The notes under the pieces were generated by a model, which did not search any database, was not told the origin of the DNA, and worked only from the letters and a program-made list of their open reading frames with translations. The translations under genes were made by a program, and so were the position numbers. A stretch of 64,000 nt of DNA, taken from positions 8,851-72,850 of the forward strand of contig JAJEHQ010000004.1 in assembly GCA_022823625.1 (NCBI GenBank), read 5' to 3'. Shown piece after piece: positions 924 through 21,207 of the stretch. How positions within the stretch are numbered: position 1 is the stretch's first letter; the number at the start of each line of letters is the position of its first letter. Origin of the DNA: Gammaproteobacteria bacterium (GTDB lineage Bacteria; Pseudomonadota; Gammaproteobacteria; Arenicellales; JAJDZL01).

Positions 924-2453
924 CTAATCGTCCTGTTTCTCCCGTTCTCTGAGTAACGCCCATTCGATACTTTCAACATGAACATCTGCCCGGCCGCGAA
1001 AGTTGCGCTTGATCAGCTCGTCGTCAGCAAGGGAGTCCAATGCAAACTTGAGTCCGTGACAGTCGAGACAAACAGGACGGATCATTTTTTCGTTCGGTCT
1101 GAGGATATCGTTTTGATTGTGATCAGTCACAAGATTTCCCCGCCTTTCTACTTTTGCCATATGACACGTTGCACAACTGACCCCTGTACCAAGACTTGCT
1201 TCACCTGCAACTTCCGCCAGCCACAATGTGTAATGCGGGCTTTTACGATAAGCCTCGCTGTGCATGTCGTCGTGACAGGTCAGGCAAGCGTCAACTGCGG
1301 CGTACGCAACATTGACAGAATGGGGGTCGTGGCAGGAACCGCAACCTACTGATAGATCAGCCGCTTCACTTCGCATTGGCAACCGCGCTTCGGCGACCGT
1401 CATATACATTGGAACTGCCGGGTCGGAAAACCACTCTTTAATGAATGAAGGCGTAATGTGTGCGAGTCCGTAAGAGTTCAGTTTGCCGTCGATGTCGCGT
1501 GGGTTTGCAATCTTGGGGTGTTGACGCATGCCATGTCGACCTTTACGAAAAGTATTCTGCTCGAATTTGTGACAATCGGCGCAAATTTTTTGACTCGGTT
1601 TATCTTCCCAAACAGTCTCAACACCAGCTGAATCTGAGCCATTTGCAATTGCAGGCGCATGGCAGCTGGTACAGTTGATTGCGTTTATTGCGTGAGCCGA
1701 ATCAGCCCAATCACGAAGGATGGCGGGGTTTGATAGTGCAGCTGAAGGGGCTTGCGCATCGTGGTGCATCAGGCGCTCGTCTTCGGAATTGTATGCGAGA
1801 CGCGCTTGACGGGTAAGCTCGTGAACAGGTCTTTGCGTGAGCCAATCTGTTTGTGCATGCTTAACCAGAAAATCGCTGTAAAGCACCCGGTTGTCATGGT
1901 AGTTGTGGCAACCCGAACTTGCGCACGTATCGAATGAAAGATCTGCGTGACTGGTTCGAATCAATCGCACGTCCTGGTCCCCTTCAGAATGGCATGCAAT
2001 GCAAAAGTTCATCGCGACCGTGACTGCACTTTCTCGCGTTATTTCCGGTCGATGCTCGGTGTGACAGGTTGTGCATAAACGTGCATCGAGCTTGTCCCAG
2101 AATTGTGCCATTCTCGGATTACGAAACTTCTTGCGCGGGTGGCTGTCATCAGATTTAGCCAGTTCATCTTCATGGCAAGTTCTGCAGGCCTTGTTCATGG
2201 CTTTCACAGCGGCTGCTGGGCGGCTGAAAATTGGCGCTTTATGACAGGTTTCACAAGCAACCTCTATCTGGTGGTGAGCATCAGTGGTTTGCCCCACAAG
2301 CAGCAGCTCACGATTGCCGCCAACCGTCATCCAAACCCCAACAATCACAATCGCAATCAGTGTTACCAGGAACCAGCTCCAAATAAAAATGAATTTTTTC
2401 GATATTCCAAGCAACTGCTCAATACAGATAGACGATAAGGATATGGACAACAA
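924..2453 (-). CDS. Membrane-anchored multihaem cytochrome c (10 CxxCH + 1 CxxxxCH)
   Basis: 509-aa ORF with an N-terminal TM helix (FIFIWSWFLVTLIAIVIVGVW). Haem motifs seen: CETCH, CRTCH, CTTCH, CIACH, CASSGCH, CTSCH, CADCH, CGSCH, CLTCH, CATCH, CLDCH. Confidence 0.85.
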   Translation of the reverse strand: MLSISLSSICIEQLLGISKKFIFIWSWFLVTLIAIVIVGVWMTVGGNRELLLVGQTTDAHHQIEVACETCHKAPIFSRPAAAVKAMNKACRTCHEDELAKSDDSHPRKKFRNPRMAQFWDKLDARLCTTCHTEHRPEITRESAVTVAMNFCIACHSEGDQDVRLIRTSHADLSFDTCASSGCHNYHDNRVLYSDFLVKHAQTDWLTQRPVHELTRQARLAYNSEDERLMHHDAQAPSAALSNPAILRDWADSAHAINAINCTSCHAPAIANGSDSAGVETVWEDKPSQKICADCHKFEQNTFRKGRHGMRQHPKIANPRDIDGKLNSYGLAHITPSFIKEWFSDPAVPMYMTVAEARLPMRSEAADLSVGCGSCHDPHSVNVAYAAVDACLTCHDDMHSEAYRKSPHYTLWLAEVAGEASLGTGVSCATCHMAKVERRGNLVTDHNQNDILRPNEKMIRPVCLDCHGLKFALDSLADDELIKRNFRGRADVHVESIEWALLREREKQDD

Positions 2454-3603
2454 GAAGAGCGGGCAAGGGAAGCAGAAAAACTATGTGGGTTTTGACGGGT
2501 GCCATACGCATTTTTTTTGTTACAGGAACCCCCCATTTCCTTAATTCGGATGATCCTCCAATCAGAATGCCAGCAAGTGCGCCTGCAATCAGTGCCACCA
2601 GATAAAACAGCATCAGGGCAGTGTTCAAATTCGCACCGAGGCGAAATCCGGTATGGAGAAAAAGCGTGAGGACACAAACAAATCCAAGCAAGATATGCGT
2701 GAGTTGCCAGGTGGAATAGTTTCCGAATCGGGTCAGCAGTCGATTTTTAAGCACAATGACAATCAATAATCCCACCAGGGTGAAACCAAGAAGCAAGTAA
2801 CCAGTCCATTGTTGCCATAGGGAATCGTTCCACAAGTATTCAAGCAAGGTAGGACCAAATTGATTTGGAATCGGTACCCGGGGCGACAAAAGAGTTGCAA
2901 CAGCAAACAAACATCCAATGATCGACAGAACGAAATTTGCTTTCTGCCTGCGCGCTGTCTGAGCCCGAATCTTCAGGATTTGCCTGCGCTCTATTGAGGC
3001 GATTCGATTAATCACCTCTCTTCCGATGAGATCGAGACGACGCAGAATTTTCATTCGCGGCTGACATTGTTTGATTTGCGAATCGCTCAAGATTTCAGGA
3101 AGCAATCCGCAGGCATCCACTAAACATGCGATGGCGGCATCTGCGGGATTAGGAATATTGTCGGACAGCACCACATCCTTAATTTGAACTTTGATGTCTT
3201 CCTTCGAATCCAAATCAGTCGTTTGAAAGGTTCGGGAACGAAACAGCCATAGAATATTTCTGTCTTTCTGTTCCACCGCCCCACTTTGCGCGAGACTGGC
3301 CAATGCAAGTTCTTGGATGGGAAGTGATCGACTTGAAGCGAGTGTCTCGATCCAATGCTCGGTATCGGCGGATTTGGAATGTGCATTTATTTCAGACAAA
3401 ACGCGATCCATTAATACATTTCCCATTGGCGTTTCATCCAAAACGATTAGCGAGTTCAGGTCGGTGTCAATTCGTCCTGAAAGTGAAAGGTCAAGCAGAA
3501 CAGCACCTGCAAGAACACTGTTGATGTACTCGTTCTGATCGGCAACAAAAATTCCATCCTCGTTTTCCAAAAGCAGGAGTATGTTGTCGGTAATTGTCAA
3601 CAT
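2419..3603 (-). CDS. GPP34/GOLPH3-like domain fused to a 5-TM, four-histidine (putative di-haem b) membrane domain
   Basis: The N-terminal half matches the remembered GPP34 pattern (ILLLLENEDG, LAGAVLLDLSLSGRIDTD, VLDETPMGN, PADAAIACLVDACGLL). The C-terminal half has 5 hydrophobic helices, two with H-x13-H. The start is set at the ATG at 3603 (M56 of the track ORF), because the upstream 55 codons read into an IS inverted repeat. Confidence 0.7.
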   Translation of the reverse strand: MLTITDNILLLLENEDGIFVADQNEYINSVLAGAVLLDLSLSGRIDTDLNSLIVLDETPMGNVLMDRVLSEINAHSKSADTEHWIETLASSRSLPIQELALASLAQSGAVEQKDRNILWLFRSRTFQTTDLDSKEDIKVQIKDVVLSDNIPNPADAAIACLVDACGLLPEILSDSQIKQCQPRMKILRRLDLIGREVINRIASIERRQILKIRAQTARRQKANFVLSIIGCLFAVATLLSPRVPIPNQFGPTLLEYLWNDSLWQQWTGYLLLGFTLVGLLIVIVLKNRLLTRFGNYSTWQLTHILLGFVCVLTLFLHTGFRLGANLNTALMLFYLVALIAGALAGILIGGSSELRKWGVPVTKKMRMAPVKTHIVFLLPLPALLVVHILIVYLY

Positions 3604-3637
3604 AAGGGGGATTATATGCTTGACTAAAACAGCGAAA
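3603..3637. repeat. IS1595-type terminal inverted repeat (left)
   Basis: TAAGGGGGATTATATGCTTGACTAAAACAGCGAAA matches the reverse complement of 4517-4550, with a 19-nt perfect core CTTGACTAAAACAGCGAAA. Confidence 0.7.
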
Positions 3638-3848
3638 ATTTTGCCCAAAAATGCCTTAAAAACGAAAACTATTTCCTTTCTGAGACCGGTTGTTTCTTTC
3701 GACTGTCTTTGCTTTCGTCCCTGCCCATTCTCAATGGTGGTGTTAAAAGCTTCTGGCGCGCAATCCATTTCGCTCTTGTATGCTCACCTTCGTTGCCTTG
3801 GCACTGCGACGGTTCCACTTGATCTTGTAACATAACCAGCCTCCCCCG

Positions 3849-4471: not shown

Positions 4472-4516
4472 TTGGATTGCTCAATTGGTTGAACTAATGG
4501 GCAAACAATCAATTAT

Positions 4517-4550
4517 TTCGCTGTTTTAGTCAAGTATATATTCCCCTAAT
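4517..4550. repeat. IS1595-type terminal inverted repeat (right)
   Basis: TTTCGCTGTTTTAGTCAAGTATATATTCCCCTAAT is the inverted partner of 3603-3637. Confidence 0.7.
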
Positions 4551-5020: not shown

Positions 5021-6157
5021 TTGAACTCGATTGACAATTCACGCAATGCACCTGTCTTTGTAACCGGTGCAGCCGGGCATGTGGGATCAAATCTCGTGCG
5101 AAGGCTGCTTAATGATAGCATTCCAATTCGTGTGTTGCTAAGACACGAGGACAACAATGAAGGACTGAAAAATCTGGATGTTGAGTGCCACTATGGTGAC
5201 ATTCGAGACTTAAAAGCCACCCGGAACGCAATGGAAGGTTGCCAAGGTGTCTATCATGTTGCAGCGAAAATTTCTACCATCGATGGTAATCGTGACCATC
5301 GTCGGGAAATATTCGAGACCAATGTTCTCGGCACCCGTAACATTTTGCGAGCGGCGCGTGAGACCGAAGCAGGTCGAGTGGTGGTTACAGGCTCATTCAG
5401 TGCAGTCGGTTATGATCTCGACGACCCCTCCTTACCGAGTGATGAGGCGATGCCATTCTATCCCATGGTACGCACGATGCCATATGAGCGCAGCAAGTCG
5501 CAAGTCGAGCACGAGTGCTGGCGTGCAGCTGCAAAAGGTCAGGAAGTCATTGTCGCAACGTGTTGTGCTGTAATCGGCGGCGCTGATTTTTTTCCATCGC
5601 GACTCGGAAAAACCTTGTGCGACTACACCAATGGGAAACTGCGTGCTTACATCGATGGTGGATTCGAGTTTGTCGCTGCACGCGACATCGTACAAGGACA
5701 TCTGTTATGCATGGAGTATGGGCGCCCCGGGGAAAAATACATATTCAGCAGCGAGTTCAAAACCATCTCTGAAATACTGGATTTATACGAGGAGGTTACC
5801 GGAATACCGCGTCCAGCTCGACGGATACCATCCGCCGTCATGCTGGCTTTCTCGGAAGTGGCGAGTTTCTATCTGAGCCGATACCGTCCGGATTTCAATC
5901 AGCGGTTTACCCCTGGTGCCATCCGTCTGCTGAAGTTACGTCGTCATGCCAGTCTCGAAAAAGCCAGGCGGGAACTGGGCTATCAGTCAACCAGTATTCG
6001 AGAGGCGATTAATGACGCCTATGCGTTTCACTACAACCGTCCGAACGCAATAATAAATCCTGATGCAAAATTTCCCACAGAGAAATCCGAATTCGCAACG
6101 GCGAGTACCATGACTAACAAGAATCTACAGGCAACGCCACAAGGAGGCTCAACTTGA
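5021..6157 (+). CDS. NAD(P)-dependent epimerase/dehydratase-family reductase, SdmB-like (sterol C-4 demethylation partner)
   Basis: 378-aa ORF with a Rossmann motif (VFVTGAAGHVGSNLV) and a TTG start. It is translationally coupled to the downstream Rieske gene. The sterol role is inferred from context. Confidence 0.65.
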   Translation: MNSIDNSRNAPVFVTGAAGHVGSNLVRRLLNDSIPIRVLLRHEDNNEGLKNLDVECHYGDIRDLKATRNAMEGCQGVYHVAAKISTIDGNRDHRREIFETNVLGTRNILRAARETEAGRVVVTGSFSAVGYDLDDPSLPSDEAMPFYPMVRTMPYERSKSQVEHECWRAAAKGQEVIVATCCAVIGGADFFPSRLGKTLCDYTNGKLRAYIDGGFEFVAARDIVQGHLLCMEYGRPGEKYIFSSEFKTISEILDLYEEVTGIPRPARRIPSAVMLAFSEVASFYLSRYRPDFNQRFTPGAIRLLKLRRHASLEKARRELGYQSTSIREAINDAYAFHYNRPNAIINPDAKFPTEKSEFATASTMTNKNLQATPQGGST

Positions 6158-7257
6158 GTTCGCTGCATAATTCACCACCAAGTTTTGAGCAAGCTGGAAA
6201 TTTGCGTCAGAAAGTTCGGGCAACCGGCATGGACCCCGACTATTGGTACGCAGTCGAAGAAGTGCGTCGAATCAAACCTGGAACCGTAGTCGAAGTTATT
6301 TTTTGGAAACAGTCTATTGCGCTATATCGTGCAGAAGATGGATCATTTTACGCACTCGAAAATCGATGCGCACATCGCCAGCTCAAACTCTCACTAGGGA
6401 ATGTTCAAGGCTGTCGGCTTGTCTGCGCATATCACGGCTGGGAATATGACCAGACCGGTCGACGGGCCGATATCCCACAAACGAAGTCGGGCGGAAACAA
6501 AGGTCTGAAGCCTTCAATCAAGAGTTATCCTGTCAAGGTTCGCTATGGTCTAGTCTGGCTGTTTCCCGGCAAGGCTGAACGCTCTGAACAACGAGAGATT
6601 CCGGATATTCCAGAACTTGAAGGGCCAAAACGCTGGGCCTGCGTACCCCTCAGCTTCACTTGGTCAGCCCATCACTCGATGATTATCGATAACGTCAGCG
6701 ATTTCACGCACGCCTATCTTCACCGCAAGTATCGTCCGTTTCAGGATGCCGTCCTCACCCAATATGAGACGGTTGGGGATAACGTTCATCTTGCTTATGA
6801 CACGAAGGTCGGACGCGGGCGGATTTCAGGACTTTTTGTGGAGCACGACAAGATTGATACCAACAGCATGACGCTTTGCTTCCAATACCCCTACCAGTGG
6901 TCGAATACCGATGAGTGGATAAAACACTGGTTATTTGTTTTACCAATCGACGAACGGACCACACGAGTATTTTTTCTGTTTTATTTCAAATCTTTAAAAA
7001 TACCCTTACTGCCCATAAGAATTCCCCGCTTTGCAATGAGCGCAGTCATGAAAATCTCAAACCGCATGATGATTGCTCCCTTGTTAACTCAGGACAAAGT
7101 TGCCGTCGAGGCAGAACAACTGGGTTACGAGGCACACTGGGACGCACCTCCCATTGAATTCAATCCGGTTGTACGCGAGTTTCAAAATTTAACTGTTCGC
7201 AAGTGGGAAGAATACTTGGCCCGTGAATCCATGGAAAACAGTTTCGATAATGCCTGA
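6154..7257 (+). CDS. Rieske [2Fe-2S] non-haem oxygenase, SdmA-like (sterol C-4 methyl oxidase, bacterial type)
   Basis: Rieske motif CAHR...x17...CAYHGW. The TTG start at 6154 overlaps the upstream TGA (TTGA). AAGGAGG lies at 6141-6147, six nt upstream. Confidence 0.7.
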   Translation: MSSLHNSPPSFEQAGNLRQKVRATGMDPDYWYAVEEVRRIKPGTVVEVIFWKQSIALYRAEDGSFYALENRCAHRQLKLSLGNVQGCRLVCAYHGWEYDQTGRRADIPQTKSGGNKGLKPSIKSYPVKVRYGLVWLFPGKAERSEQREIPDIPELEGPKRWACVPLSFTWSAHHSMIIDNVSDFTHAYLHRKYRPFQDAVLTQYETVGDNVHLAYDTKVGRGRISGLFVEHDKIDTNSMTLCFQYPYQWSNTDEWIKHWLFVLPIDERTTRVFFLFYFKSLKIPLLPIRIPRFAMSAVMKISNRMMIAPLLTQDKVAVEAEQLGYEAHWDAPPIEFNPVVREFQNLTVRKWEEYLARESMENSFDNA

Positions 7258-8350
7258 ACCGAACTTTATATCGATGTTGACAACGCTGACGAGCCTGAAC
7301 CTGCTTGAAGCGGCGGGCATGGTTTTGGTATTCGTTGGGGTACTGTTTTTGGGTTCTGTAGTGGTACCTGGACGCCGAATCAAAGGTCCGGATATGGAGG
7401 GCGATACGCGCGAATATAAACTCAATGGTCTTGCGCTGTTTCTGATTACGGTATTTGTGACAGCTATTGTCCAGTCAATGGGTTGGTTTTCGCTTTCGGT
7501 GCTGTATTCGCAGTTTGCCGCTTTGTTCGTGGCTGCAAACGTATTCGCATTTTTACTTGCTACATGGCTTTATTTCCGGGCTACCCGTAATCAGGAAACC
7601 ACTACTGGCTTTTGGCGCAGATATTTTTTCGGTGCGCTGTCCAATCCGACCTGGCTCGGAGTGGACATTAAGCTATTTAGCTATCGCCCCTCTCTCATTG
7701 GTCTCGCACTCTTTAATGCCTCATTCGCCGTCATGCAATACGAAACTTACGGTGAACTGACGCTGGCAATGGTGCTATATCAAATCTTCACTTTTTTGTA
7801 TGTATTCAACTATTTCCAGTTTGAACAGGGAATGGTTCACACATGGGACATGATCAGTGAGCGCTTTGGATGGATGCTGATTTGGGGAGATTATGTCTTG
7901 GTGCCATTTTTTTACTGTTTGGTGGGTTGGTGGCTGGTGCACCCGTCTGATGTGCTGCATCCTATTACCGCAGTAGCAATTGTGTTGTTATTTGGATTCG
8001 GTTTCTGGCTATTTCGCGGCGCCAATCAACAAAAGCACCGCTTCAAACGTAAAGCTGATATCAGGATTTGGGGTCAACCCGCCCGTACCTTGGAAGGTCG
8101 GTTGCTGATCTCCGGTTTTTGGGGTGTTGGACGCCACCTTAACTATACGGGTGAAATTTGTGTCTACTTTTCATTTGCCCTGACCACAGGATTCGAGTCT
8201 TGGGTACCCTACCTCTTGCCTGTATGGTTGACTGTACTGCTGTGTCACCGCTCACTACGTGATGAGCAACGCTGTCGTGCCAAGTATGGCGATCTGTGGA
8301 CGCGCTACAAACAACGAGTCCGTTATTCAATGTTACCGTTTGTCTACTAG
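7250..8350 (+). CDS. Sterol reductase, ERG4/ERG24 family (probable C-14 reductase)
   Basis: Polytopic membrane ORF with the family C-terminus GFWGVGRHLNYTGEI...HRSLRDEQRCRAKYGDLWTRYKQRVRYSMLPFVY. The ATG at 7250 overlaps the upstream stop (ATGCCTGA). The track ORF starts at a GTG at 7223. Confidence 0.8.
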   Translation: MPEPNFISMLTTLTSLNLLEAAGMVLVFVGVLFLGSVVVPGRRIKGPDMEGDTREYKLNGLALFLITVFVTAIVQSMGWFSLSVLYSQFAALFVAANVFAFLLATWLYFRATRNQETTTGFWRRYFFGALSNPTWLGVDIKLFSYRPSLIGLALFNASFAVMQYETYGELTLAMVLYQIFTFLYVFNYFQFEQGMVHTWDMISERFGWMLIWGDYVLVPFFYCLVGWWLVHPSDVLHPITAVAIVLLFGFGFWLFRGANQQKHRFKRKADIRIWGQPARTLEGRLLISGFWGVGRHLNYTGEICVYFSFALTTGFESWVPYLLPVWLTVLLCHRSLRDEQRCRAKYGDLWTRYKQRVRYSMLPFVY

Positions 8351-8377
8351 CGGCAGTAACAAATCAAGGAAGTAACC

Positions 8378-9766
8378 ATGACGACCCTTTCCTCAACACA
8401 TCACACACCGCCACCGGCTAAGAATATTCCGATGCTGACCGGTGGATTGCCCTTGATTGGTCATCTGACGGAGTTTTTAAAGGATCCGGTTTCGATGTTG
8501 ATCCGTGGGTGGCATGAGCAGGGAGAGTTGTTTCAATTTCGTCTCGGTACGCGTAAATTCGTCTTGTTTGCCGGTCCCGAAGCGCATGATTGTTATTTCA
8601 GGGCGCCCCGAGATCACATGAGCGCTAAAGACGTCTATCAATTCACAGTACCAATTTTTGGTCGTGGTGTAGCCTACGACGTTTCCCCCGAACTGATGTC
8701 TGAGCAGTTGGGATTTCTCTACCCGGAACTGCGCGAATCCGCGTTACGCAAGTTTTCTGACATTATGTTTGAGGAGACAATGAATTTTGCTGATGCCATG
8801 GGCCAACAAGGAGAATTGGATTTACCACAGGCGATGAATCAGCTTACGATCAATATTGCCAGTCACTGCCTCATAGGTCCTGAGGTCCGTAATCAGTTGA
8901 ACGCTGGGTTTGCGGAAAGCTATCACGATTTGCAGAATGGAATCAACACCCTAGGCTTTTTCTTTCCTCATTTACCGACACCGGCGCATCGAAGTCGCGA
9001 TCGGGCACGGAAATCCATTTCCGAAATGTTTGAACGAATTGTCATGGAGCGACGGCGTACGGGTGCTAGGTCGGATGATTTCATGCAGAAAGTTATGGAA
9101 AGTCGTTACAAAGATGGCCGTGCGGTTACCGACGAAGAGATTACTGGAATTCTACTGACCGTATTGTTCGCGGGTCAGCACACTAGCGCAGTTCTTGCAA
9201 CCTGGACCTGTTTGGAACTTTTGAATTCGCCGTCGTACATTGACAAATTGCGGAACGAGATGCAGGAAATTTATGCAAATGAAAACGCTTCAAACATTGA
9301 CACCTTAAAGCAACAATCGTTGATGGAGTACACCATACGCGAAAACGAGCGACTACATCCGCCATTGATTTTGTTGATTCGAAAAGTACTCAAACCTGTG
9401 CAATTCGGTGATCATTCCGTACCCGCCGGCACCCTCGCCATGGTATCACCGGCAGCTGCTCACCGCTTGCCTCACCTATTCGCCAATCCAGACCGGTTCT
9501 ATCCGGAAAGATTTGCATCACCGAACCGCGAAGACAAACAACACCGCTACACTTTGATAGGTTTTGGCGGCGGTAATCACATGTGTATGGGGAAGCATTT
9601 TGCCTACCTGCAACTTAAAACGATCTGGACTGTACTGCTTGATCGCTTTGATTTTTTTACCGATCGAGACATTCCTGCCCCGAATTATGGCAGTTGGGTG
9701 ACAGGTCCCAAGGAGCCTTGTCGGGTTCGTTACCAACATCGCTCAAAATCTGGCATTTTCCATTGA
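8378..9766 (+). CDS. cyp51: Sterol 14-alpha-demethylase (CYP51)
   Basis: CYP51 signatures are present: YQFTVPIFGRGVAYDV, I-helix FAGQHTSA, and Cys loop FGGGNHMCMG. There is no fused ferredoxin domain (462 aa). Confidence 0.85.
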   Translation: MTTLSSTHHTPPPAKNIPMLTGGLPLIGHLTEFLKDPVSMLIRGWHEQGELFQFRLGTRKFVLFAGPEAHDCYFRAPRDHMSAKDVYQFTVPIFGRGVAYDVSPELMSEQLGFLYPELRESALRKFSDIMFEETMNFADAMGQQGELDLPQAMNQLTINIASHCLIGPEVRNQLNAGFAESYHDLQNGINTLGFFFPHLPTPAHRSRDRARKSISEMFERIVMERRRTGARSDDFMQKVMESRYKDGRAVTDEEITGILLTVLFAGQHTSAVLATWTCLELLNSPSYIDKLRNEMQEIYANENASNIDTLKQQSLMEYTIRENERLHPPLILLIRKVLKPVQFGDHSVPAGTLAMVSPAAAHRLPHLFANPDRFYPERFASPNREDKQHRYTLIGFGGGNHMCMGKHFAYLQLKTIWTVLLDRFDFFTDRDIPAPNYGSWVTGPKEPCRVRYQHRSKSGIFH

Positions 9767-12700
9767 GCAATAGTCTAGGATTCTATGACGTCGCCATCGT
9801 CGGCGCTGGTCCTGTCGGGAGCGTATGTGCCCTCGCCTACGCAAAAAAGGGCGCTCAAGTTGCTCTGTTCGAAGCGAATCCGAAGGCCTCCAAACGACTG
9901 GCCGGTGAGTGGTTGCATCCGCCGGCTCTTCGAATTCTAAACGAGGTCGGGGTTGAGATTGAATCGCAAATCGAAAGCGTCCCCGGCAACGGGTTTGCTG
10001 TGTTTCCGGAAGACGGCTCGGAACCGATTATACTTCCTTATGCGAACGGGTCCCGCGGTTTGGCATGTGAACATTCAGCACTCGTCTCGCTTCTTCATCA
10101 AAGTGTACAAAATGAGTCTAATATCGACTTTTTTGTTCCAGTTAAGGTTCTTGAAGCCACATCTGGTCAGATATCCATAGCTCTCAACGGAACCAATACT
10201 ACTGTCAACGCCAACCGAATTGTCGGTGCCGACGGTCGCGCATCAACTGTTCGCAAGTCACTGGGATTGCAGACTGGTCGGGTAACCTGCTCGCGTATGG
10301 TGGGGGTGATCGTTGAAGGGGAAGACTTGCAACTGAAGGGTTATGGCCATGTTCTGCTGGGTGGGCCAGGTCCGATTCTCATGTACCAATTGGGGCATGA
10401 TCGCGTCCGGATAATCGTCGATGTGCCGTTGAATCACTGGATTCCGCGTGACCGTATTGGGCTGTTGTCGGAAGCTTACGCCGATCGGCTACCTGAACAA
10501 CTCAGATCTGGATTTGTCGAAGCACTCCAGAACGGAAAATTTCATGCTGCAAACAATGAAATTAGAGCGCGAACGACTCATGGGAATTCAAACCTTGTTC
10601 TTGTAGGCGACGCAGTCGGAAATTACCATCCTATGACTGCGGTCGGCATGACTCTCGGTTTTGGTGATGCTTTCGATTTGGCGATGCACGAGAACTTTCG
10701 AGCATTTTCCTCCAAACGTCACTTGGCAACTCGCGGCCCTGAGTTACTGGCGATGGGTTTGTACGAGATTTTTGCTGACTATCGACGCGAATCAGCGGAA
10801 CTAAGGAGAGCGATTTATAGTAATTGGCGAAAACATCCTTTAGCCCGCAAAGGAACTGTAAGTCTACTTGCTTGTGAAAACACGTCGGTTGTTCATCTTT
10901 CTTTCACTGTTTCCACGATAGTCGCCCTTACGCTCCTTAGACAACTCCCGCGTAACTTTGAAAGACTACCCTGGAACCGTGCATTCAAAGTCATGAATGC
11001 TACCACTGGACGGTTGGTATGGCTGGTGCGCGGCATTATCGCCCAACGTAGAGACCGAAATAGAGGTGGCGAAAAAGACTTTCTTGCCCGTGATTCATTA
11101 GCCCGCGCATTCCTAATTTCCATTCCAACGAGATCCGATGATTCCAGGTCAATTCTCCAAAAGATTCATTCTCCCGATGTCGGTCCTGCCTTGGAGAGGG
11201 CTACAGAGCGTTTGTTGAGTCTCCAGAATGACAATGGCAGCTGGGAAGGAGAAATGGTTTGGTGTCCCATGCTCACCGCCCAATACGCTCTGCTACACTA
11301 CATTCTCGATCAGCCGCTGGAGCCACAACGACGACAACTTATCCTGCTTAGTTTCGAGAAGACTCGTCTTGAACAAGGGGTATGGGGTATGCACGAGCAT
11401 TCCTCACCTCATCTTTTCGTTACCACCCTTGTGTATGTCACATCGAGACTGCTTGGAGTCAGTCAAGATGATCCTTTGATCGAACCAGCGAGGCAGTTCC
11501 TGCAGGCAGAAGGGGTTGTCAATATTCCAAGTTGGGGCAAGTTTTGGCTAGCGCTGCTTAATCTCTACGACTGGGACGGAGTCCATGCTGTACTGCCAGA
11601 ATTGTGGCGACTGCCGCGTTGGTTTGTATTACATCCCTCTAAGTGGTATTGCCACACCAGGCTAATTTACATGGCTATGGCAACAGTTTACTCACAACGA
11701 TACCAAGCACCGATTACATCCACGATCACCTCTTTACGAGAAGAACTTTTTCCCCAAGGTTTTGACAAGGTGAATTTTTCCGAAGCCCGAAACAGTTTGC
11801 GAGAAGCTGATTTATTCTGCCGGCCGAGTCTGTGGCTTCGAGCCGGGTATTGCCTGACAAGAGCGTATGAAAAAGTTCATCTAAAGCGCCAAAGGACTCA
11901 AACTGTCGACAGACTGCTCAAACGAATCAAGTGGGAGTTGCAAACCACTAACCACACAAGCATATCTCCTGTCAGCGGTTTGCTCAATATTCTTGCCTTG
12001 TGGTTGCATGATCGGAATGACTCTGACATGTTGCAGGCGCTATCGCAGTTGGATGGTTGGATTTGGGAGGACGAGGAACAAGGTACGCGAGTTACCGGTG
12101 CAAGGAGTGCTTCGTGGGATACCGGGTTTGCGTTGCAGGCGTTGGCGAAGGTAGCTGAATTAGACAAGGTTCAGAACGCACTCACACATGGCTCTGAATT
12201 TTTGAGCCAAGAGCAAATTGTCAACAGTTTTCAGGGATATCAAGAGGCGAATCGTGCCGACCCTAAAGGTGGTTGGTGTTTTGCGGGAGGATGGCATGGC
12301 TGGCCGGTGTCCGACTGTACTGCAGAGGCTGCACTTGGAATTCTTGCTGTCCATGGCAAAAATTCTGACACCAGCACGTTGAGTGAAGCCGTACAGTTCA
12401 TGTTACGGAGCCAAAATCGAAATGGTGGTTTTGGCAGTTATGAATCAAAACGTTCAATGCTTGGTCTGGAGTGGCTTAATCCAGCTGAGATGTTTGGCGA
12501 ATCAATGACCGAGCACTCCTTTGTCGAATGCACTGCATCGTGCCTTAGCGCACTTAGTGAATTCAAGAGTCATTTCCCACAACTTGCAGACCAGACCGTA
12601 ACGAACGCCATTTCTAGAGGCGAAGCCTGGCTTCGCCGAACGCAAGCGAATGACGGATCATGGCGCGGCGTGTGGGGCGTTCAGTACATTTACGGCACCT

Positions 12701-13143
12701 TGTTTGGGATTCGGGGTTTGCTTGCGGCGGGAGCGAATCCTGGCGACCCGGCACTGCGACTGGCCTGCCATTGGCTGTTAGAGCGCCAACGCAATGATGG
12801 CGGTTGGGGAGAAAGTCACCGAGGCTGCTTCACTGGCCAATACATCGGGCTTGTGGAGAGTCAAGTTATCCAGACCGCGTGGGCTCTCATCGCACTGCTT
12901 GAGGCAGGTGACTCCAACTGGCACGCGATTTCAAATGGAATTGGCTATTTGCTCAACACGCAAAATGTGGATGGAACATGGCCAAAGCAAAATATGGTTG
13001 GTGTGTTTTTTCGCACTGCTCTGTTGGACTATGTACTGTATCGACAATACTTTCCTTTGCATGCATTGTGCCTCTACCAGCAACGACGTAAGATGCGTCA
13101 GTCGGTGAAAGTTGACACTGATTGCTGCACAGTAGCAGACTGA
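9763..13143 (+). CDS. Squalene monooxygenase - oxidosqualene cyclase fusion protein
   Basis: One uninterrupted frame. N-terminal FAD domain: YDVAIVGAGPVGS, VGADGRAS, GDAVGNYHPMTAVGMT. C-terminal cyclase: VSDCTAEA plus QW repeats (RSQNRNGGFGSY, RTQANDGSWRGVWG, ERQRNDGGWGES, NTQNVDGTWP). The start is uncertain. The TTG at 9763 overlaps the CYP51 TGA, and the track ORF begins at a TTG at 9694. Confidence 0.8.
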   Translation: MSNSLGFYDVAIVGAGPVGSVCALAYAKKGAQVALFEANPKASKRLAGEWLHPPALRILNEVGVEIESQIESVPGNGFAVFPEDGSEPIILPYANGSRGLACEHSALVSLLHQSVQNESNIDFFVPVKVLEATSGQISIALNGTNTTVNANRIVGADGRASTVRKSLGLQTGRVTCSRMVGVIVEGEDLQLKGYGHVLLGGPGPILMYQLGHDRVRIIVDVPLNHWIPRDRIGLLSEAYADRLPEQLRSGFVEALQNGKFHAANNEIRARTTHGNSNLVLVGDAVGNYHPMTAVGMTLGFGDAFDLAMHENFRAFSSKRHLATRGPELLAMGLYEIFADYRRESAELRRAIYSNWRKHPLARKGTVSLLACENTSVVHLSFTVSTIVALTLLRQLPRNFERLPWNRAFKVMNATTGRLVWLVRGIIAQRRDRNRGGEKDFLARDSLARAFLISIPTRSDDSRSILQKIHSPDVGPALERATERLLSLQNDNGSWEGEMVWCPMLTAQYALLHYILDQPLEPQRRQLILLSFEKTRLEQGVWGMHEHSSPHLFVTTLVYVTSRLLGVSQDDPLIEPARQFLQAEGVVNIPSWGKFWLALLNLYDWDGVHAVLPELWRLPRWFVLHPSKWYCHTRLIYMAMATVYSQRYQAPITSTITSLREELFPQGFDKVNFSEARNSLREADLFCRPSLWLRAGYCLTRAYEKVHLKRQRTQTVDRLLKRIKWELQTTNHTSISPVSGLLNILALWLHDRNDSDMLQALSQLDGWIWEDEEQGTRVTGARSASWDTGFALQALAKVAELDKVQNALTHGSEFLSQEQIVNSFQGYQEANRADPKGGWCFAGGWHGWPVSDCTAEAALGILAVHGKNSDTSTLSEAVQFMLRSQNRNGGFGSYESKRSMLGLEWLNPAEMFGESMTEHSFVECTASCLSALSEFKSHFPQLADQTVTNAISRGEAWLRRTQANDGSWRGVWGVQYIYGTLFGIRGLLAAGANPGDPALRLACHWLLERQRNDGGWGESHRGCFTGQYIGLVESQVIQTAWALIALLEAGDSNWHAISNGIGYLLNTQNVDGTWPKQNMVGVFFRTALLDYVLYRQYFPLHALCLYQQRRKMRQSVKVDTDCCTVAD

Positions 13144-13337
13144 CCTCAAACTTACCGGAACACTAATTTCGAAATTGAGGTTAATCTATCCGGTACAACG
13201 CATCAGACGGAATTGTTTCAGGTGCAGCGTGGCTCGCATTGCTCAACGGACCCAGCGCTTTCCTTTCAATCTCACTAACTCAATTCGACAGATACTGACA
13301 GCATCGCCGTTAGGTACGGCGATTGTAAAAAGCTGAC

Positions 13338-14399
13338 TTAACTGTTTGAATGATGGGGTTTACGTGCCAAAAAGTAGTACATTGTCGTAAATGTACCGGT
13401 TTCACCACCTTTGACAATTGCATCAGCCGCTCTGTTCAAAATGGTGCTGACCATACGAGCGCCTTTAGGAAACAGTCGTACTCTCTCGCCGATTCTCAAC
13501 ACCAGGTTGGTAATCGCACGTCCCGCAGGTGTACGGGGAATACTCCGGAATGTGATGTCACGTCCTTGCAAGGGGCGATACCAAGGTATATCAGAGTTCG
13601 ATGCGCTAGCTAAGTCGCGCGCATCAAGGACCTCGAATCCAGCCTCGCACAATGCTTCATATACCCCTTTCGTGGTGGATATTCTGGGCAGCGCATTTCC
13701 AATCTCAATGTCTCTGACAATTCGCCTGTGTTCTGCATTTTGCGAATCAAACAATTCAGTTACGCACCAATCGTACCCGGCAAAACTCGCTCCTGGGCGA
13801 AGAACACGCAGTATTTCTCCAAACGCCGCTGTCTTGTCTGGCGCATGGGGCATGGACTCGATGGCGAAAGCACCATCAAAGCAATCATTGTCTTCAGGTA
13901 TCTTCATGTAATCGCCATGAATGAAGCGGCACAGCGACTTGATGTCCTCAGCCTGTGTAACTTCTTTGGCGCGCTTTATTTGGTACGCGTTGTTGTTAAG
14001 CCCTACAAATTTAGCCCCTGAATAGCGAGCCAATTCAGCCATTGGTCCCCCTACTCCGCACCCCACATCGAGAATATGCATTCCAGGTTTCAGGGACATT
14101 TGGTCCGCAATAAAATGCTGATGCCTCAGTAATGACGCCTTAAAACTCTCACCTCGTCGTCGAGGTGCAAAGTGAAATGAATTGCCCCAACCAAACTCGT
14201 AGAAGTCAGTTGCCAAGTTGTAGTAGTGGTTGACAAATTTCTGGTAGGTTTCTTTTCGATGTTCTTCGCCAGACTCATAGATTTTTTCATATTCATTGAC
14301 CACAGAATCGACTTCATCATCGGACAGGGCACCGAGCAGCCCAGAAGAATTCAGTTGTTTGTCAAATACCGATGGTAAATCTTTATTTTCTTCAGCCAA
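13338..14399 (-). CDS. Sterol C-24 methyltransferase (Erg6/SMT family), paralog A
   Basis: Region-I motif FYEFGWGNSFHFAP, SAM motif ILDVGCGVGGP, then NNNAYQI. TTG start. Confidence 0.85.
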   Translation of the reverse strand: MAEENKDLPSVFDKQLNSSGLLGALSDDEVDSVVNEYEKIYESGEEHRKETYQKFVNHYYNLATDFYEFGWGNSFHFAPRRRGESFKASLLRHQHFIADQMSLKPGMHILDVGCGVGGPMAELARYSGAKFVGLNNNAYQIKRAKEVTQAEDIKSLCRFIHGDYMKIPEDNDCFDGAFAIESMPHAPDKTAAFGEILRVLRPGASFAGYDWCVTELFDSQNAEHRRIVRDIEIGNALPRISTTKGVYEALCEAGFEVLDARDLASASNSDIPWYRPLQGRDITFRSIPRTPAGRAITNLVLRIGERVRLFPKGARMVSTILNRAADAIVKGGETGTFTTMYYFLARKPHHSNS

Positions 14400-14445
14400 G
14401 CGAATGATCCTACTGAGTTGAAATAACGAAAGTCATTGAGCAAAA

Positions 14446-14455
14446 CTTCTAGAAG
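14446..14455. promoter_or_regulatory. 10-bp perfect palindrome CTTCTAGAAG in the SMT-A leader (candidate operator)
   Basis: It lies ~47 nt upstream of the SMT-A start. A near-identical element sits at the same relative position upstream of SMT-B. Confidence 0.3.
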
Positions 14456-14844
14456 GCTATCAACGGATTGATTTACAGTTGGGTGGAACCTATACATTGA
14501 TTTTTAAATTGCTCATTCACTGCAAAAATCATAAATCCAATACTTGAATCTTCAGGGCATTCGAATTATGCGCTGTCAGACAGTAAAAGGTAAGTGCCAT
14601 TTTGTGCATTGGAATCGTGCAACAACTGAACCAAAGCGTGACTCAATTTGAGCAGATTCGAGGTTGGTGAATAACGGATATCCTTAAATATTTGACTAAC
14701 TGCAGAAAATTAAACTGTGGTATTTTACGGTTCTCATTCGCAACTCACCAATTTATTGCACCATCAACTTCTTAAATTAAATCAAATCTATACTCGAACA
14801 AAATTCTATTTTTCAGTGGCGGCTCAGTTCAATTCTACTCACCT

Positions 14845-15663
14845 CTAACGGATACGCTTTATCGCTGTTTGCGTAAAGTTGCTTTCATCAAGGTCAGTCT
14901 TAAACTCCAGATCCGACCAAAGCATGTCGGTGCTCTTACCGGTAAGATGGTTCACCATCATGATCTTGCTAGCTTGCCAGAAATTATTGAGATACTTTTC
15001 GTAGTTCTCAAGGGTCATCGTTTTTAGGTGTGCGTTTCTACGGTCAAAGAAATGAACCTGCTGGACACGAAGCTCTTCCCGGTCGTACCAAACCAGATGA
15101 CGCGAATAACCTGAATCGGCGCTGACTGGAACACGCTCCAATACTGCACACTGCAAATCGCCGCAGGGTTCGTCGCGCAAGAATTTATGCGTATATTTCT
15201 CAATTTCAACCGCGCCAAGATCCTCGTAAGCAAACTCACTACCCATAAAGGAACCTGACTGTTTTGACGAACTGATCCGTTTTACTCGTTTGAGCGCGGG
15301 TAGATAAAGCCATTGATCATCAGGCTCGAACTTATGGGCATGAACTAGAAAGGCTGTTCCTTTGACGTCACGCGGCTCATCAAACACAAACAGGGAACGG
15401 TCGCCATCCTCTTCAACTTCCAGCACTTTCAACCGCACTTTGCGCGAAGATTCCTTACCCTGTTTGTTTCGCAAAATCATGGTAAGACTTGCCGTGTAAT
15501 TAACAAATCCATACTGCTTTTGGCGGGCTTCCATTGCAATTTGAAACCCTATTTCCTCAGCATTCTGTGCACTCACGGTGAATGGCGTCATAACCAATGC
15601 AAATACAGCAAAATAGATGCTAAGTGATCCGAGGTTGTAATTACGATGAGAAAGACTTTGCAT
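14845..15663 (-). CDS. LolA-like outer-membrane lipoprotein-sorting family protein (periplasmic lipid carrier candidate)
   Basis: Signal peptide present. The core DGDRSLFVFDEPRDVKGTAFL...DDQWLYLPALKRVKRISSSKQSGSFMGSEFAYEDL matches the remembered LolA_like family, which usually partners MMPL/RND permeases. Confidence 0.65.
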   Translation of the reverse strand: MQSLSHRNYNLGSLSIYFAVFALVMTPFTVSAQNAEEIGFQIAMEARQKQYGFVNYTASLTMILRNKQGKESSRKVRLKVLEVEEDGDRSLFVFDEPRDVKGTAFLVHAHKFEPDDQWLYLPALKRVKRISSSKQSGSFMGSEFAYEDLGAVEIEKYTHKFLRDEPCGDLQCAVLERVPVSADSGYSRHLVWYDREELRVQQVHFFDRRNAHLKTMTLENYEKYLNNFWQASKIMMVNHLTGKSTDMLWSDLEFKTDLDESNFTQTAIKRIR

Positions 15664-16209: not shown

Positions 16210-17283
16210 TTAACTGTCTGGATTATGGGGTTTACGTACCAGGAAAAAATATAGTGGTGTAAATATTCCAGTCTCACCGGCTTCGATGAATGCATTCCCC
16301 GCCCTGCCCAGAAATGTGGTGATTTTGTGAGTCCCTTTCGGAACTCCCCGTACTTTCTCACCTATCCTTAACACCAATTTGGTGACTGCACGACCGGTAG
16401 GTGTGATTAGAATATTTCTAAGTGTGAAGTCTGTGAAGTGACGACCTTGAAAGATGTTATACCATGGTATATCGGAGCCAGATATGTGAGCAAGGTCACA
16501 CGTATCGAGAACTTCGAATCCAGCCTCGCAAAATGCTTCACAAATTTCTGCTGCGGTGGAAATTTTGGGTAGTGCGGTCCCAATCTCAATGTCTTCAATA
16601 ATCCGCGTGTGTTCAGCATTCTGCGAGTCAAAAAAGTCGGTTACACACCAATCGTGACCCGCAAAACAAGCCCCTGGACGCAATACACGAAAAACTTCCC
16701 GGAACGCTGCTGTTTTGTCTGGTGCATGCTGCATGGACTCGATGGCGATCGCGCCATCAAAGCAATCGTTGTCTTCGGGTATCTGCATGTAATCGCCATG
16801 AACAAAATCGCACAACGACCCAATATCCTCAGCTTGCGTGATTTGTCTTGCACGTTTAATTTGGTACGCGTTATTGTTAAGTCCCACAAAACTAGCCCCG
16901 GAATAGCGGGCCAATTCAGCCATTGGAGCTCCGATTCCACACCCTACATCGAGTATATGCATTCCCGGTTTCAGGGACATTTGGTCTGCAATAAAGTGCT
17001 GATATCGGAATTTCGACGACTTAAGACTCTCACCCAATCGTCGAGGTGCAAAATGAAAAGATCTGCCCCAGACGAACTCGAATAATCCAGTTACCAGGTC
17101 GTAATAATGATTGACATATCTCTGATATGTCTCTTTTCGATGTTCCTCGCCAGACTCATAAATTTGTTGGTATTCATTGGCCACGGAACTAATTTCATCC
17201 TTGGACAGGTCTCCGAACAAACTGGAAGAATTCATCGCTTTTTTTGGCGACCGTGACGATGGTTTATTTTGATCAGTAGCCAC
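16210..17283 (-). CDS. Sterol C-24 methyltransferase (Erg6/SMT family), paralog B
   Basis: Region I is LFEFVWGRSFHFAP (Phe where paralog A has Tyr), followed by ILDVGCGIGAP. The GTG start is preceded by GGGAGGAG. Confidence 0.85.
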   Translation of the reverse strand: MATDQNKPSSRSPKKAMNSSSLFGDLSKDEISSVANEYQQIYESGEEHRKETYQRYVNHYYDLVTGLFEFVWGRSFHFAPRRLGESLKSSKFRYQHFIADQMSLKPGMHILDVGCGIGAPMAELARYSGASFVGLNNNAYQIKRARQITQAEDIGSLCDFVHGDYMQIPEDNDCFDGAIAIESMQHAPDKTAAFREVFRVLRPGACFAGHDWCVTDFFDSQNAEHTRIIEDIEIGTALPKISTAAEICEAFCEAGFEVLDTCDLAHISGSDIPWYNIFQGRHFTDFTLRNILITPTGRAVTKLVLRIGEKVRGVPKGTHKITTFLGRAGNAFIEAGETGIFTPLYFFLVRKPHNPDS

Positions 17284-18876: not shown

Positions 18877-21207
18877 ATGAATGTTTATGAATTTTTCAAC
18901 TTGGTAGTCAGATACCGCTGGTTAACAATTTTTCTTTCGTTGCTGATTGTGGTGGTGTTCGCTGCGGGAGTTACGCGAATTGTTACTGTCGACGTAGATT
19001 TTCGAAATCACTTCAACAAAGATGATCCGCATTTGGTTAAGCTCGAAGAAATGGAGGATCTGTTCGCGCTTTCAGATAGCGCACTTGTAGTGATCGCACC
19101 CTCGACTGAAACCATTTTTACCCGTGAGGCACTTGCCGCAGTCGAACAGTTGACCGAACAGCTTTGGCTGACTCCGTATGTAGTTCGCGTCGATTCTTTA
19201 GCAAACTACTCACATAGCGAAGGACTCGAAGACGAACTAATCGTTGAACAGCTATTCGAAGATGCGATTTCGCTGAGTGACGAAGAGTTGGAGCGAATTC
19301 AGAGGATCGCACTCGATACGACGGATATCGCCGGTCGTTTTATTTCACGAGACGGTCGTCTCGGTGGATTTGTTATTAGTCTTGCACTTCCCGATAGTGA
19401 TCGAGAAGCAGCAAAAATTGAAGTTGTCGACTTTCTAAATGGCCTTGCTGTTGAAGCTCGCACCAGCAATCCGGAATTTGAATATCACCTCTATGGTGAT
19501 CTCTTTCTTAATCGCGCCGTCCGTGACGCGATCAATAACGATATAGCCGTTCTAGCACCAATTGCGTTTGGCACGATGCTGCTGGTCGCGTTAATAGTAC
19601 TTCGATCAATTTGGGGAATGATTGCGATCGTTGCCATGTTGATGACCGTGTTGCTTTCTGCGCTTGGGTTTACTGGTTGGACGGGTATGCCTTTGTTTGG
19701 AGAGAGTGGTGCAGCGTTGTTTGTATTAATGGCGATTGCCATCGCTCATTCGGTTCATGTAATTGAGGTAATGGCAGATGGTATGCGCTCAGGGATGTCA
19801 CGCAGGTCTGCCGCGATTCATTCCTTGCAACTCAACGCGTGGCCTGTATTTCTGACTTCACTAACCACCGCTATCGGTTTTCTCAGCTTGAATTTCTCGG
19901 AAATGCCCCCGTTTCGAGTCATGGGCAACATCGTCGCATTCGGAGCGATGTGCGCATTCGTATTTTCGGTCACACTTTTGCCTGCATTGTTGTCGATTAT
20001 GCCCATGAGAACTCGGGTTGCACCAGCAGGAAAACTATACTTTTTTGATCATCTGGCAAAATTTGTTGTTTCCAATAGTACCCGATTGTTGTGGACTTTT
20101 GTCATCTTAACAGCCGTACTCGTTGTCGGAATTACGCGCATCGAGCTCAACGAAAATCATTTGGAAATTCTAGATGAAAGTTACGAGTTTCGACGGTCCA
20201 CCGATTTCATAGTGGAAAATTTCTCAGCATTGGAGCCATTCGAGTACTCGCTTAATTCAGGTCGCGATAGCGGTGTTACTGATGTTGAGTTTCTGCGTAA
20301 TGTCGACGCTTTCGCACAGTGGCTTCGAATGCAGCCGGAAGTTTCTTACGTTGTGTCATTTACTGACGTTCTTAAGCGGCTGAATGAAAACCTGCATGGT
20401 GACGACCCCAATTTTTATAAGCTGCCGGAGGATTCTGAACTTGCCGCGCAATACTTGCTGCTTTACGAATTCTCTTTGCCAGTTGGACGCGATCTAAACA
20501 ATGTCATTGATGTCGAACGTTCCAAAACTCGCTTAACAGCTGTTATTAAAGGTTTGTCGATTGGTGAGAAGATTGAACTCGACGAACGTGCGAAATCCTG
20601 GCTGCATCAAAATGCTCCAGGTATGGCAACCGGAGCAACCGGAGTTACGATAGTCGGTGCATATTCGATTATGCGAAACATAGAAAGAATGCTGATCGGA
20701 ACTATCATTGCGATGTCCATAGTTTCGTTGCTACTGATATTTGTCTTTAGAAGTTTCCGGTTTGGTCTGATTAGCCTGATACCCAATTTCGTTCCAGCCA
20801 TCATGGCTATGGGTGTATGGGGATACGTCGTCGGACAGGTTGATATATCGGCTTCGGTTGTTACAGCAATTGCTTTTGGTATCATCGTGGACGATACGAT
20901 ACATCTTATGACAAAATACCTGAGAGAGCGGGCTAGCGGGAAGTCGCCTGAGGATGCTATCCGGCCGGTATTTCGAATAGTGGGCCGTCCGCTATTGACA
21001 ACAACAGCAATTTTTGCCTTGGGATTCATGGTGTTTGGAACGTCAGCACTGTCTGCCAATCAGACACTCGGTGTGTTGGTGGGACTAACTGTTGTAATTG
21101 CGCTGGTGGCGGATTTATTGCTGTTTCCGCCGTTGCTAATGACCTTGGACAAAACCAGGGGTAAACTGAGTGATTTTAAGAAAGGATCTTCTCATCACGC
21201 ACGCTAG
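18877..21207 (+). CDS. RND-superfamily MMPL/HpnN-type permease (candidate sterol exporter)
   Basis: 776 aa with the 1+5 / 1+5 TM pattern and two large soluble loops typical of RND permeases. The sterol role is inferred from context only. Confidence 0.7.
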   Translation: MNVYEFFNLVVRYRWLTIFLSLLIVVVFAAGVTRIVTVDVDFRNHFNKDDPHLVKLEEMEDLFALSDSALVVIAPSTETIFTREALAAVEQLTEQLWLTPYVVRVDSLANYSHSEGLEDELIVEQLFEDAISLSDEELERIQRIALDTTDIAGRFISRDGRLGGFVISLALPDSDREAAKIEVVDFLNGLAVEARTSNPEFEYHLYGDLFLNRAVRDAINNDIAVLAPIAFGTMLLVALIVLRSIWGMIAIVAMLMTVLLSALGFTGWTGMPLFGESGAALFVLMAIAIAHSVHVIEVMADGMRSGMSRRSAAIHSLQLNAWPVFLTSLTTAIGFLSLNFSEMPPFRVMGNIVAFGAMCAFVFSVTLLPALLSIMPMRTRVAPAGKLYFFDHLAKFVVSNSTRLLWTFVILTAVLVVGITRIELNENHLEILDESYEFRRSTDFIVENFSALEPFEYSLNSGRDSGVTDVEFLRNVDAFAQWLRMQPEVSYVVSFTDVLKRLNENLHGDDPNFYKLPEDSELAAQYLLLYEFSLPVGRDLNNVIDVERSKTRLTAVIKGLSIGEKIELDERAKSWLHQNAPGMATGATGVTIVGAYSIMRNIERMLIGTIIAMSIVSLLLIFVFRSFRFGLISLIPNFVPAIMAMGVWGYVVGQVDISASVVTAIAFGIIVDDTIHLMTKYLRERASGKSPEDAIRPVFRIVGRPLLTTTAIFALGFMVFGTSALSANQTLGVLVGLTVVIALVADLLLFPPLLMTLDKTRGKLSDFKKGSSHHAR

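Follow-up and report, generated by a model that had tools for sequence, protein, structure and literature searches.

A probable bifunctional squalene epoxidase-oxidosqualene cyclase encoded by one gene in a bacterial sterol operon

In classical bacterial sterol producers, squalene epoxidase and oxidosqualene cyclase are encoded by separate, adjacent genes. Can one gene encode both enzymes? The question is raised by a stretch of 64,000 nucleotides (hereafter the window) from a Gammaproteobacteria bacterium of the order Arenicellales (assembly GCA_022823625.1, contig JAJEHQ010000004.1, positions 8,851 to 72,850 of the forward strand). An earlier reading of the sequence alone, made without database searches, had proposed that the two enzymes are encoded here as a single polypeptide of about 1,130 amino acids (aa). 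Our analysis leads to the view that the gene at 9763..13143 very probably encodes a natural enzyme of about 125 kDa with both activities, and that it belongs to a horizontally spread sterol cassette of a gammaproteobacterial sponge symbiont. The coordinates of the gene, its motifs and its neighbours are collected in Table 1.

Is there truly one gene, and where does it begin? A single uninterrupted open reading frame (ORF) covers 9694..13143 on the forward strand, with 1149 codons counted from its first TTG. Pfam places FAD_binding_3 and SE within the N-terminal ~410 aa and SQHop_cyclase_N and SQHop_cyclase_C within the C-terminal ~630 aa, and the G+C content is flat across the fused gene, at 0.49-0.50. 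The TTG at 9694 was considered as the start and dropped in favour of the likelier TTG at 9763, because orthologues carry ATG, GTG or TTG at the position homologous to the latter and because an NTGA overlap of this start with the stop of the upstream CYP51-type gene is kept in 66 of the 70 loci that have CYP51 upstream. The start at 9763 and its overlap with the CYP51 stop had both been pointed out by the sequence-only reading and are retained; the product, however, has 1126 aa, neither the ~1,130 given there nor the 1149 of the full frame. Translation of the fused gene is probably coupled to that of CYP51, and the conservation of the overlap puts this coupling on a good comparative footing. 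A scan of 4300-14600 for promoters and terminators returned counts below the shuffled expectation and was uninformative.

Could the fusion be an artefact of assembly, frameshift or gene calling, with two neighbouring genes in reality, as Methylococcus and Gemmata have them? The arrangement in classical producers would suggest so, and so would a close relative, locus L081, in which the two genes are separate and lie 5 nt apart. Homologues were searched for among 5.8 billion proteins and by a scan of one genome per species, which yielded 341 relatives; the locus counts given throughout refer to the best 80 of these 341. The proteins comprise more than 120 non-redundant clusters of full-length homologues, 1113-1181 aa long, which carry both domain sets and are 62-93% identical to the fused protein. 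The 80 loci come from metagenome-assembled genomes (MAGs) of about ten phyla, some of them chromosome-level assemblies from several of these phyla and many named sponge-associated, including Gammaproteobacteria (among them Arenicellales and Candidatus Porisulfidus), Alphaproteobacteria, Nitrospirales, Binatia, Acidimicrobiia, Acidobacteriota, Gemmatimonadota, Nitrospinaceae, Thermodesulfobacteriota and others. In 79 of the 80, no stop interrupts the frame between the epoxidase N-terminus and the cyclase C-terminus; the junction is constant in length, with conserved flanks. The sole exception is a truncation and not a split: in the chromosome-level Arenicellales MAG L025 (8577..12331) an IS110-family transposase lies immediately upstream, and the fused gene has only the part from residue 351 onwards. 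This MAG lacks the four operon genes that precede the fusion elsewhere and keeps the sterol methyltransferase and LolA-like genes, and the cassette appears to be decaying in this genome. The intact ORFs in independent assemblies and the full-length protein clusters rule out the artefact hypothesis, to which we give practically no weight, and the proposal of two enzymes on one polypeptide is thus borne out well beyond the window.

What do the two modules look like? All the motifs quoted in the sequence-only reading, namely YDVAIVGAGPVG, GDAVGNYHPMTAVGMT, VSDCTAEA and the four QW repeats, were located in the ORF. In the epoxidase module, Pfam scores are 87.7 bits for SE (PF08491; cut-off 20.1) and 88.8 bits for FAD_binding_3 (cut-off 22), and the key Gly and Asp of the motifs binding flavin adenine dinucleotide (FAD) are invariant across 90 aligned homologues. 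Human squalene epoxidase (SQLE, PDB 6C6N) matches aa 9-357 at E 6e-27 with phmmer, where aa 357 corresponds to residue 381 of the 458 in the chain. The structural comparison by Foldseek reaches further: against SQLE 6C6R the TMt is 0.80 over 438 columns of about 450 residues, with the C-terminal helical part included. AlphaFold places these C-terminal helices at aa 294-449. The module would be expected to convert squalene to 2,3-oxidosqualene.

The cyclase module scores 160.7 bits for SQHop_cyclase_N and 203.2 bits for SQHop_cyclase_C, above the Pfam thresholds. Which kind of cyclase is it? Its catalytic motif is VSDCTAEA and not the DxDD of hopene cyclases, and the four QW repeats and the catalytic Asp are present and invariant over the 90 homologues. 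Human lanosterol synthase 1W6K aligns from residue 82 to 721 with aa 481-1107 at E 9e-121, and scores 407 bits against 192 bits for squalene-hopene cyclase 1GSZ, which puts the module nearer to the oxidosqualene cyclases. In Foldseek the TMt to 1W6K is 0.82.

The product is a more delicate matter. The equivalents of human T381, C449 and V453 are Ala, His and Val. In the bacteria tested by others, Val at 453 correlated completely with lanosterol and Ile tracked cycloartenol, and of the three positions 453 alone was found predictive in bacteria (PMC4919349). This Val (V849) is invariant in all 90 homologues, and Mohanty et al. made the lanosterol call as well for the related protein MsbE (PMC7074536). 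Thus the module is probably of the lanosterol-synthase type with lanosterol as product, although this is not certain because the T381 and C449 equivalents are Ala and His. Might the cyclase make cycloartenol, parkeol or another protosterol instead, or might the epoxidase supply it with 2,3;22,23-dioxidosqualene? His at 449 is the cycloartenol-synthase state (PMC4919349), and earlier work connects the cassette with unusual sterols of sponges and with sarasinosides (PMC7074536). Weighed against the invariant Val, we consider another product unlikely.

How are the two modules joined? The sequence-only reading had described a linker of about 60 residues at nt 11010-11200. Most of that stretch turns out to be epoxidase C-terminal helices, and the part belonging to neither enzyme is about 18-24 aa. 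The limits of the epoxidase and cyclase alignments, the AlphaFold coil and the spacing of conserved anchors together set the true linker at ~18 residues, aa 455-472. The alignment with P0146, an epoxidase of 477 aa that stands alone in bacteria, covers aa 7-461 of the fused protein, and stand-alone bacterial cyclases start aligning at aa 470-476, within their own first 10-25 residues. In the AlphaFold model, built on a 90-sequence alignment with a mean predicted local distance difference test score (pLDDT) of 84.8 and a predicted template modelling score (pTM) of 0.88, helices extend to aa 449 and are followed by coil at aa 450-473, and within the junction the pLDDT falls below 50 solely at aa 459-465. 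The distance between the anchors ARAFLxS and GPAL is 35 aa in 68 of 79 orthologues and 34 aa in the subclade of the window (8 sequences); larger deviations, of one to four residues, occur in just four sequences. One cyclase loop, unlike the linker, varies by up to 49 alignment columns. The fixed length of the linker and the high pTM of the whole chain argue for a defined predicted geometry between the domains and not for a passive tether. The junction map and the near-constant length of the linker are new details of the present analysis.

Does the one chain also work as one protein? The linker could be cut by proteolysis, or the cyclase could be initiated internally, so that two proteins result. 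The linker is indeed rich in Pro, Ser and Arg and predicted to be disordered at aa 459-465, and the cyclase of L081 starts independently 13 residues before GPAL. On the other hand, the window gene offers no ATG, GTG or TTG in frame from aa 431 to 476, and no Shine-Dalgarno-like sequence precedes the first in-frame TTG past the linker, at aa 477. Nothing points to a protease site, and the constant length of the linker argues for a role as tether. Two separate proteins are therefore very unlikely, and a single bifunctional chain is the reading that we keep.

On this reading, the following scheme may be drawn. An N-terminal FAD-dependent squalene epoxidase would be followed by a short linker of fixed length and by an oxidosqualene cyclase, probably of the lanosterol-synthase type. 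As the distal gene of a polycistronic sterol operon, it would let one protein carry squalene to a lanosterol-type protosterol. The fused protein shows no clear transmembrane helix, its highest Kyte-Doolittle mean over 19 aa being 1.72 (aa 374-392), and monotopic membrane association is assumed for this reason. Both modules would then sit on one membrane leaflet, where 2,3-oxidosqualene leaving the epoxidase would be captured locally by the cyclase. The advantage of the fusion might be proximity together with a fixed 1:1 stoichiometry, or it might simply be co-inheritance during transfer. Local capture of oxidosqualene with avoidance of bis-epoxidation is a possible kinetic benefit.

Then which of these advantages has kept the fusion? 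One explanation is that the fixed linker and the predicted packing provide a dedicated intramolecular hand-over of 2,3-oxidosqualene, which would limit leakage and second epoxidation and, together with the overlapping genes, would explain why it was this cassette, and not versions with unfused genes, that swept through about ten phyla. We hold this explanation to be tentative and rather doubtful. If it is true, the split relative L081 becomes a natural control. Another explanation is that there is no kinetic channelling, that separate modules would be equally good, and that the fusion is kept for compaction of the cassette, co-transfer and 1:1 expression. Squalene epoxidase and oxidosqualene cyclase are expected to be monotopic membrane proteins, and their substrate partitions in the bilayer anyway, which speaks for this explanation. 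So do the operon junctions, all of which are tight or overlapping, and L081, which keeps the operon although its gene is split. It is further favoured by the spread of the cassette over about ten phyla at just 61-65% identity and by gene trees unlike the species tree, a pattern that Kelly et al. found as well (PMC9531527). What it does not easily accommodate is a linker held at nearly the same length while the cyclase loop varies, and the pTM of the whole chain. Co-transfer without channelling is hence a serious possibility that still falls short of being probable.

Some observations weigh against a bifunctional enzyme that takes squalene to lanosterol. An enzyme assay of a natural epoxidase-cyclase fusion was not found in the searchable literature, and no electron donor for the epoxidase module was identified within the window. 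The Ala and His named above, at two of the three positions classically taken to determine the product, are not lanosterol-like. In addition, L081 runs the pathway operon with separate epoxidase and cyclase genes, so the pathway does not require the two enzymes to be covalently linked.

Is the split in L081 ancestral or derived? Its epoxidase has 477 aa (8001-9434) with a tail of its own at the end, and its cyclase 666 aa (9440-11440), in a different frame. Between the anchors there are 15 extra residues compared with the fusion, containing the stop and the new start, and the cyclase initiates at the site before the conserved GPAL motif mentioned above. The operon is the same minus ERG24, with the start-stop overlap of P450 and epoxidase retained. 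The split is real, because the 477-aa epoxidase was found as 12 near-identical full-length copies from several assemblies. In neighbour-joining (NJ) bootstraps, L081 fell outside the fused clade, at its base, in 44 replicates of 100 and inside it in the other 56. The more distant outgroups are themselves fused and would mildly favour a secondary fission, a hint that is offset by the unfused cyclases interspersed among distant fused ones (see below).

The fused architecture indeed reaches beyond the sponge clade. The 79 fused genes and the window, to which one of them (L001) is 98% identical, are monophyletic relative to distant fused outgroups in 100 of 100 NJ bootstraps. When proteins are clustered at 50%, the sponge clade forms one representative, and there are at least eight other full-length fused representatives at 37-47% identity; Pfam confirms the fused architecture in the distant P0121, P0125 and P0130. 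Unfused cyclases are interspersed among the distant fused ones in NJ trees at the level of representatives, which are trees without support values. In a separate family outside the window (P0217, P0228 and P0260, ~1080-1200 aa), an N-terminal squalene epoxidase is combined with a C-terminal squalene/phytoene synthase domain (SQS_PSY) at E 1e-43 to 1e-47. The stretch between them resembles a piece of cyclase: phmmer matches ~100 aa of it to the window cyclase in all three proteins, and Pfam reports SQHop_cyclase_C in P0228 only. This family is another fusion of consecutive steps of triterpenoid synthesis.

Has the gene been inherited vertically or transferred? In the NJ tree of the 79 orthologues most sequences group by class, those of Gammaproteobacteria are dispersed over the tree, and the phyla branch in an order that matches no species tree. 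Identities between phyla are 61-65%, no lower than those within Gammaproteobacteria. To judge from these sequences, the tree and the identities agree with the published inference of horizontal transfer. As a separate observation, six loci (L031, L038, L041, L048, L056 and L067, some of them Acidimicrobiales MAGs) carry the fused gene alone (about 9960-10000 in each); within 10 kb of it, genes for CYP51, ERG24, Rieske and SdmB are all missing. Just upstream of the start these loci nevertheless keep the TTCCGATGAGC context, which elsewhere is the CYP51 3' end and here looks like a remnant of a full cassette from which the gene was acquired. In L038 a TrpD-like glycosyl transferase gene lies upstream of the lone fused gene.

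In the window, the fused gene is the last of five co-oriented and tightly packed genes, SdmB-like, Rieske, ERG24-type, CYP51 and the fusion; the SdmB-like gene overlaps the start of the Rieske gene by 4 nt, and the span from ERG24 to the end of the fusion (7223..13143) is 5921 bp. The name SdmA for the Rieske oxygenase is taken from PMC10070321. How stable is this arrangement? CYP51 lies upstream of the fusion in 71 of the 80 loci, and ERG24, Rieske and the SdmB-like gene are syntenic in 68, 69 and 67 of them. The five-gene order is kept in about 67 of them, most of which show 62-80% protein identity for every gene. A sterol methyltransferase (SMT) homologue lies no more than 10 kb from the fused gene in 59 of the 80 loci, in many just downstream on the opposite strand. 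A contig of a Gammaproteobacteria MAG, JAJDXD010000110.1, is collinear with the window across 23 kb at 98% nucleotide identity.

Table 1. Positions of the fused gene, its modules and motifs, and neighbouring genes in the window
Feature	Position (nt)	Strand	Remarks
Fused squalene epoxidase-oxidosqualene cyclase gene, msbE type	9763..13143	+	1126 aa; TTG start, TGA stop 13141-13143
TTGA, fused-gene start overlapping CYP51 stop	9763..9766	+	TTG 9763-9765, TGA 9764-9766
Squalene-epoxidase module	9763..11124	+	aa 1-454; FAD Rossmann fold, GADGRAS, GD motif, C-terminal helices aa 294-449
FAD Rossmann motif YDVAIVGAGPVG, GxGxxG	9784-9819	+	GAGPVG at aa 14-19
GADGRAS motif	10225-10245	+	aa 155-161
GD motif GDAVGNYHPMTAVGMT	10606-10653	+	aa 282-297
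Inter-domain linker PTRSDDSRSILQKIHSPD	11125..11178	+	aa 455-472; Pro/Ser/Arg-rich; sequence variable, length nearly invariant
FLISIPTRSDDSRSILQK			Part of the junction-spanning peptide stretch of the fused protein
Oxidosqualene-cyclase module	11179..13140	+	aa 473-1126; lanosterol-synthase-like; catalytic Asp and QW repeats
VSDCTAEA with catalytic Asp	12307-12330	+	aa 849-856; D851 and C852 invariant in 90 homologues
Four canonical QxxxGxW repeats	11224-11244, 12643-12663, 12787-12807, 12961-12981	+	
Degenerate QW repeat QNRNGGF	12412	+	
NAD-dependent epimerase / 3-beta-HSD oxidoreductase, SdmB-like, msbA equivalent	5021..6157	+	Pfam Epimerase, 3Beta_HSD
Rieske oxygenase, SdmA-like, msbB equivalent	6154..7257	+	Pfam Rieske and VanA_C
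ERG4/ERG24-family sterol C-14 reductase homologue, msbC equivalent	7223..8350	+	Pfam ERG4_ERG24 E 1.3e-74
CYP51-type P450, sterol 14-alpha-demethylase homologue, msbD equivalent	8378..9766	+	Pfam p450 E 1.8e-61
Sterol C-24 methyltransferase homologue, msbF equivalent	13338..14399	-	Pfam Sterol_MT_C and methyltransferase domains; convergent with operon
LolA-like periplasmic or outer-membrane lipoprotein-sorting protein	14845..15663	-	
Second sterol methyltransferase homologue	16210..17283	-	Sterol_MT_C E 5e-17
MMPL/RND transporter	18877..21207	+	Past the sterol cluster
GPP34-P450 protein	21408..23417	-	669 aa; GPP34 (GOLPH3-like) aa 8-205 E 6e-32, P450 aa 231-653 E 6e-34
Second GPP34-domain protein	2419..3768	-	449 aa; upstream of the sterol operon
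Multihaem c-type cytochrome	924..2453	-	509 aa; Cytochrom_c3_2, Cytochrome_C7, paired CXXCH

Further genes of the window deserve mention. The second SMT homologue, the LolA-like protein and the MMPL/RND transporter may form a module for sterol modification and export. Beside the cluster there is an unusual ORF in which a P450 is fused to GPP34, a lipid-binding domain of eukaryote type, and the domain occurs again in a protein on the other side of the operon. A multihaem c-type cytochrome is encoded near the left end of the window.

Why does the enzyme matter? Sterol synthesis by sponge symbionts bears on how 24-isopropylcholestane and other 'sponge' steranes are to be read as the earliest animal biomarkers (PMC10070321), and also on where the sterol glycosides of sponges come from (PMC7074536). 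The pathway begins with the fused enzyme, and a compact single-gene route from squalene to protosterol could serve engineering. Channelling between two monotopic membrane enzymes could also be studied on this natural example, since fused and split relatives are now available side by side.

There is a last question, how the locus compares with systems already known. The fused gene and the operon have been described before in sponge symbionts, and the window adds no new kind of system. The novelty implied by the sequence-only reading is therefore not upheld: a fused msbE was described in 2020 (PMC7074536), the operon in 2022 (PMC9531527) and fused homologues of squalene monooxygenase (SMO) and oxidosqualene cyclase (OSC) in 2023 (PMC10070321). 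The nearest system was reported by Mohanty et al. (2020, Mar Drugs 18:124, PMC7074536), who described the msb locus (GenBank MT026193) in a gammaproteobacterial symbiont of the sponge Melophlus sarasinorum. This locus shares with the window the host class, Gammaproteobacteria, and the order oxidoreductase, Rieske, sterol reductase, CYP51-like, fused gene and sterol methyltransferase; the likeness to MsbE is judged by architecture and gene order. The window differs in having the second methyltransferase, the LolA-like protein and the MMPL transporter, whereas the flanks of msb were reported without sterol genes (PMC7074536).

Kelly et al. (2022, Microbiome 10:164, PMC9531527) describe a cassette of ERG24, CYP51 and LSS, named 'cluster of steroid genes' (CSG), which 115 of the 537 MAGs from Ircinia carry, across ten phyla, with gene trees that indicate horizontal transfer; this spread and the inferred transfer match the loci studied here. 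The length of CSG is 5910 +/- 74 bp, compared with the 5921 bp of the window, and the flanks are alike as well, with a DFR-like and a 'hypothetical' gene upstream and the SMT downstream on the opposite strand. The 'LSS' gene is under purifying selection (omega 0.17), and its alignment of 3765 nt fits a fused gene; the paper labels it solely LSS/ERG7, and in the parts consulted the epoxidase half is unmentioned. Brown et al. (2023, Nat Commun 14:1859, PMC10070321) mentioned "fused SMO/OSC homologs" in metagenomic sterol clusters that share the architecture, carry functional bacterial sterol methyltransferases and have cyclases in the bacterial Group 1 OSC clade. The fusion appears there in the Methods only, where the N-termini were trimmed for the tree, and it was neither analysed nor assayed. 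It does not come up in the main texts of Santana-Molina et al. 2020 and Hoshino & Gaucher 2021.

Among unfused systems, Methylococcus capsulatus shares with the fusion both enzyme families and their adjacency, but has two polypeptides, which in E. coli function as separate proteins (PMC12146001). A Foldseek search returned no solved structure covering both modules in one chain. The best solved relatives, human SQLE (6C6N/6C6R) and lanosterol synthase (1W6K), share the catalytic motifs with the modules but are separate proteins of the endoplasmic reticulum, with 22-23% and 32% identity to the respective modules in the Foldseek alignments. To these known systems the present analysis adds the map of the junction, the AlphaFold model, the split relative L081 and the distant fused clusters at 37-47% identity.

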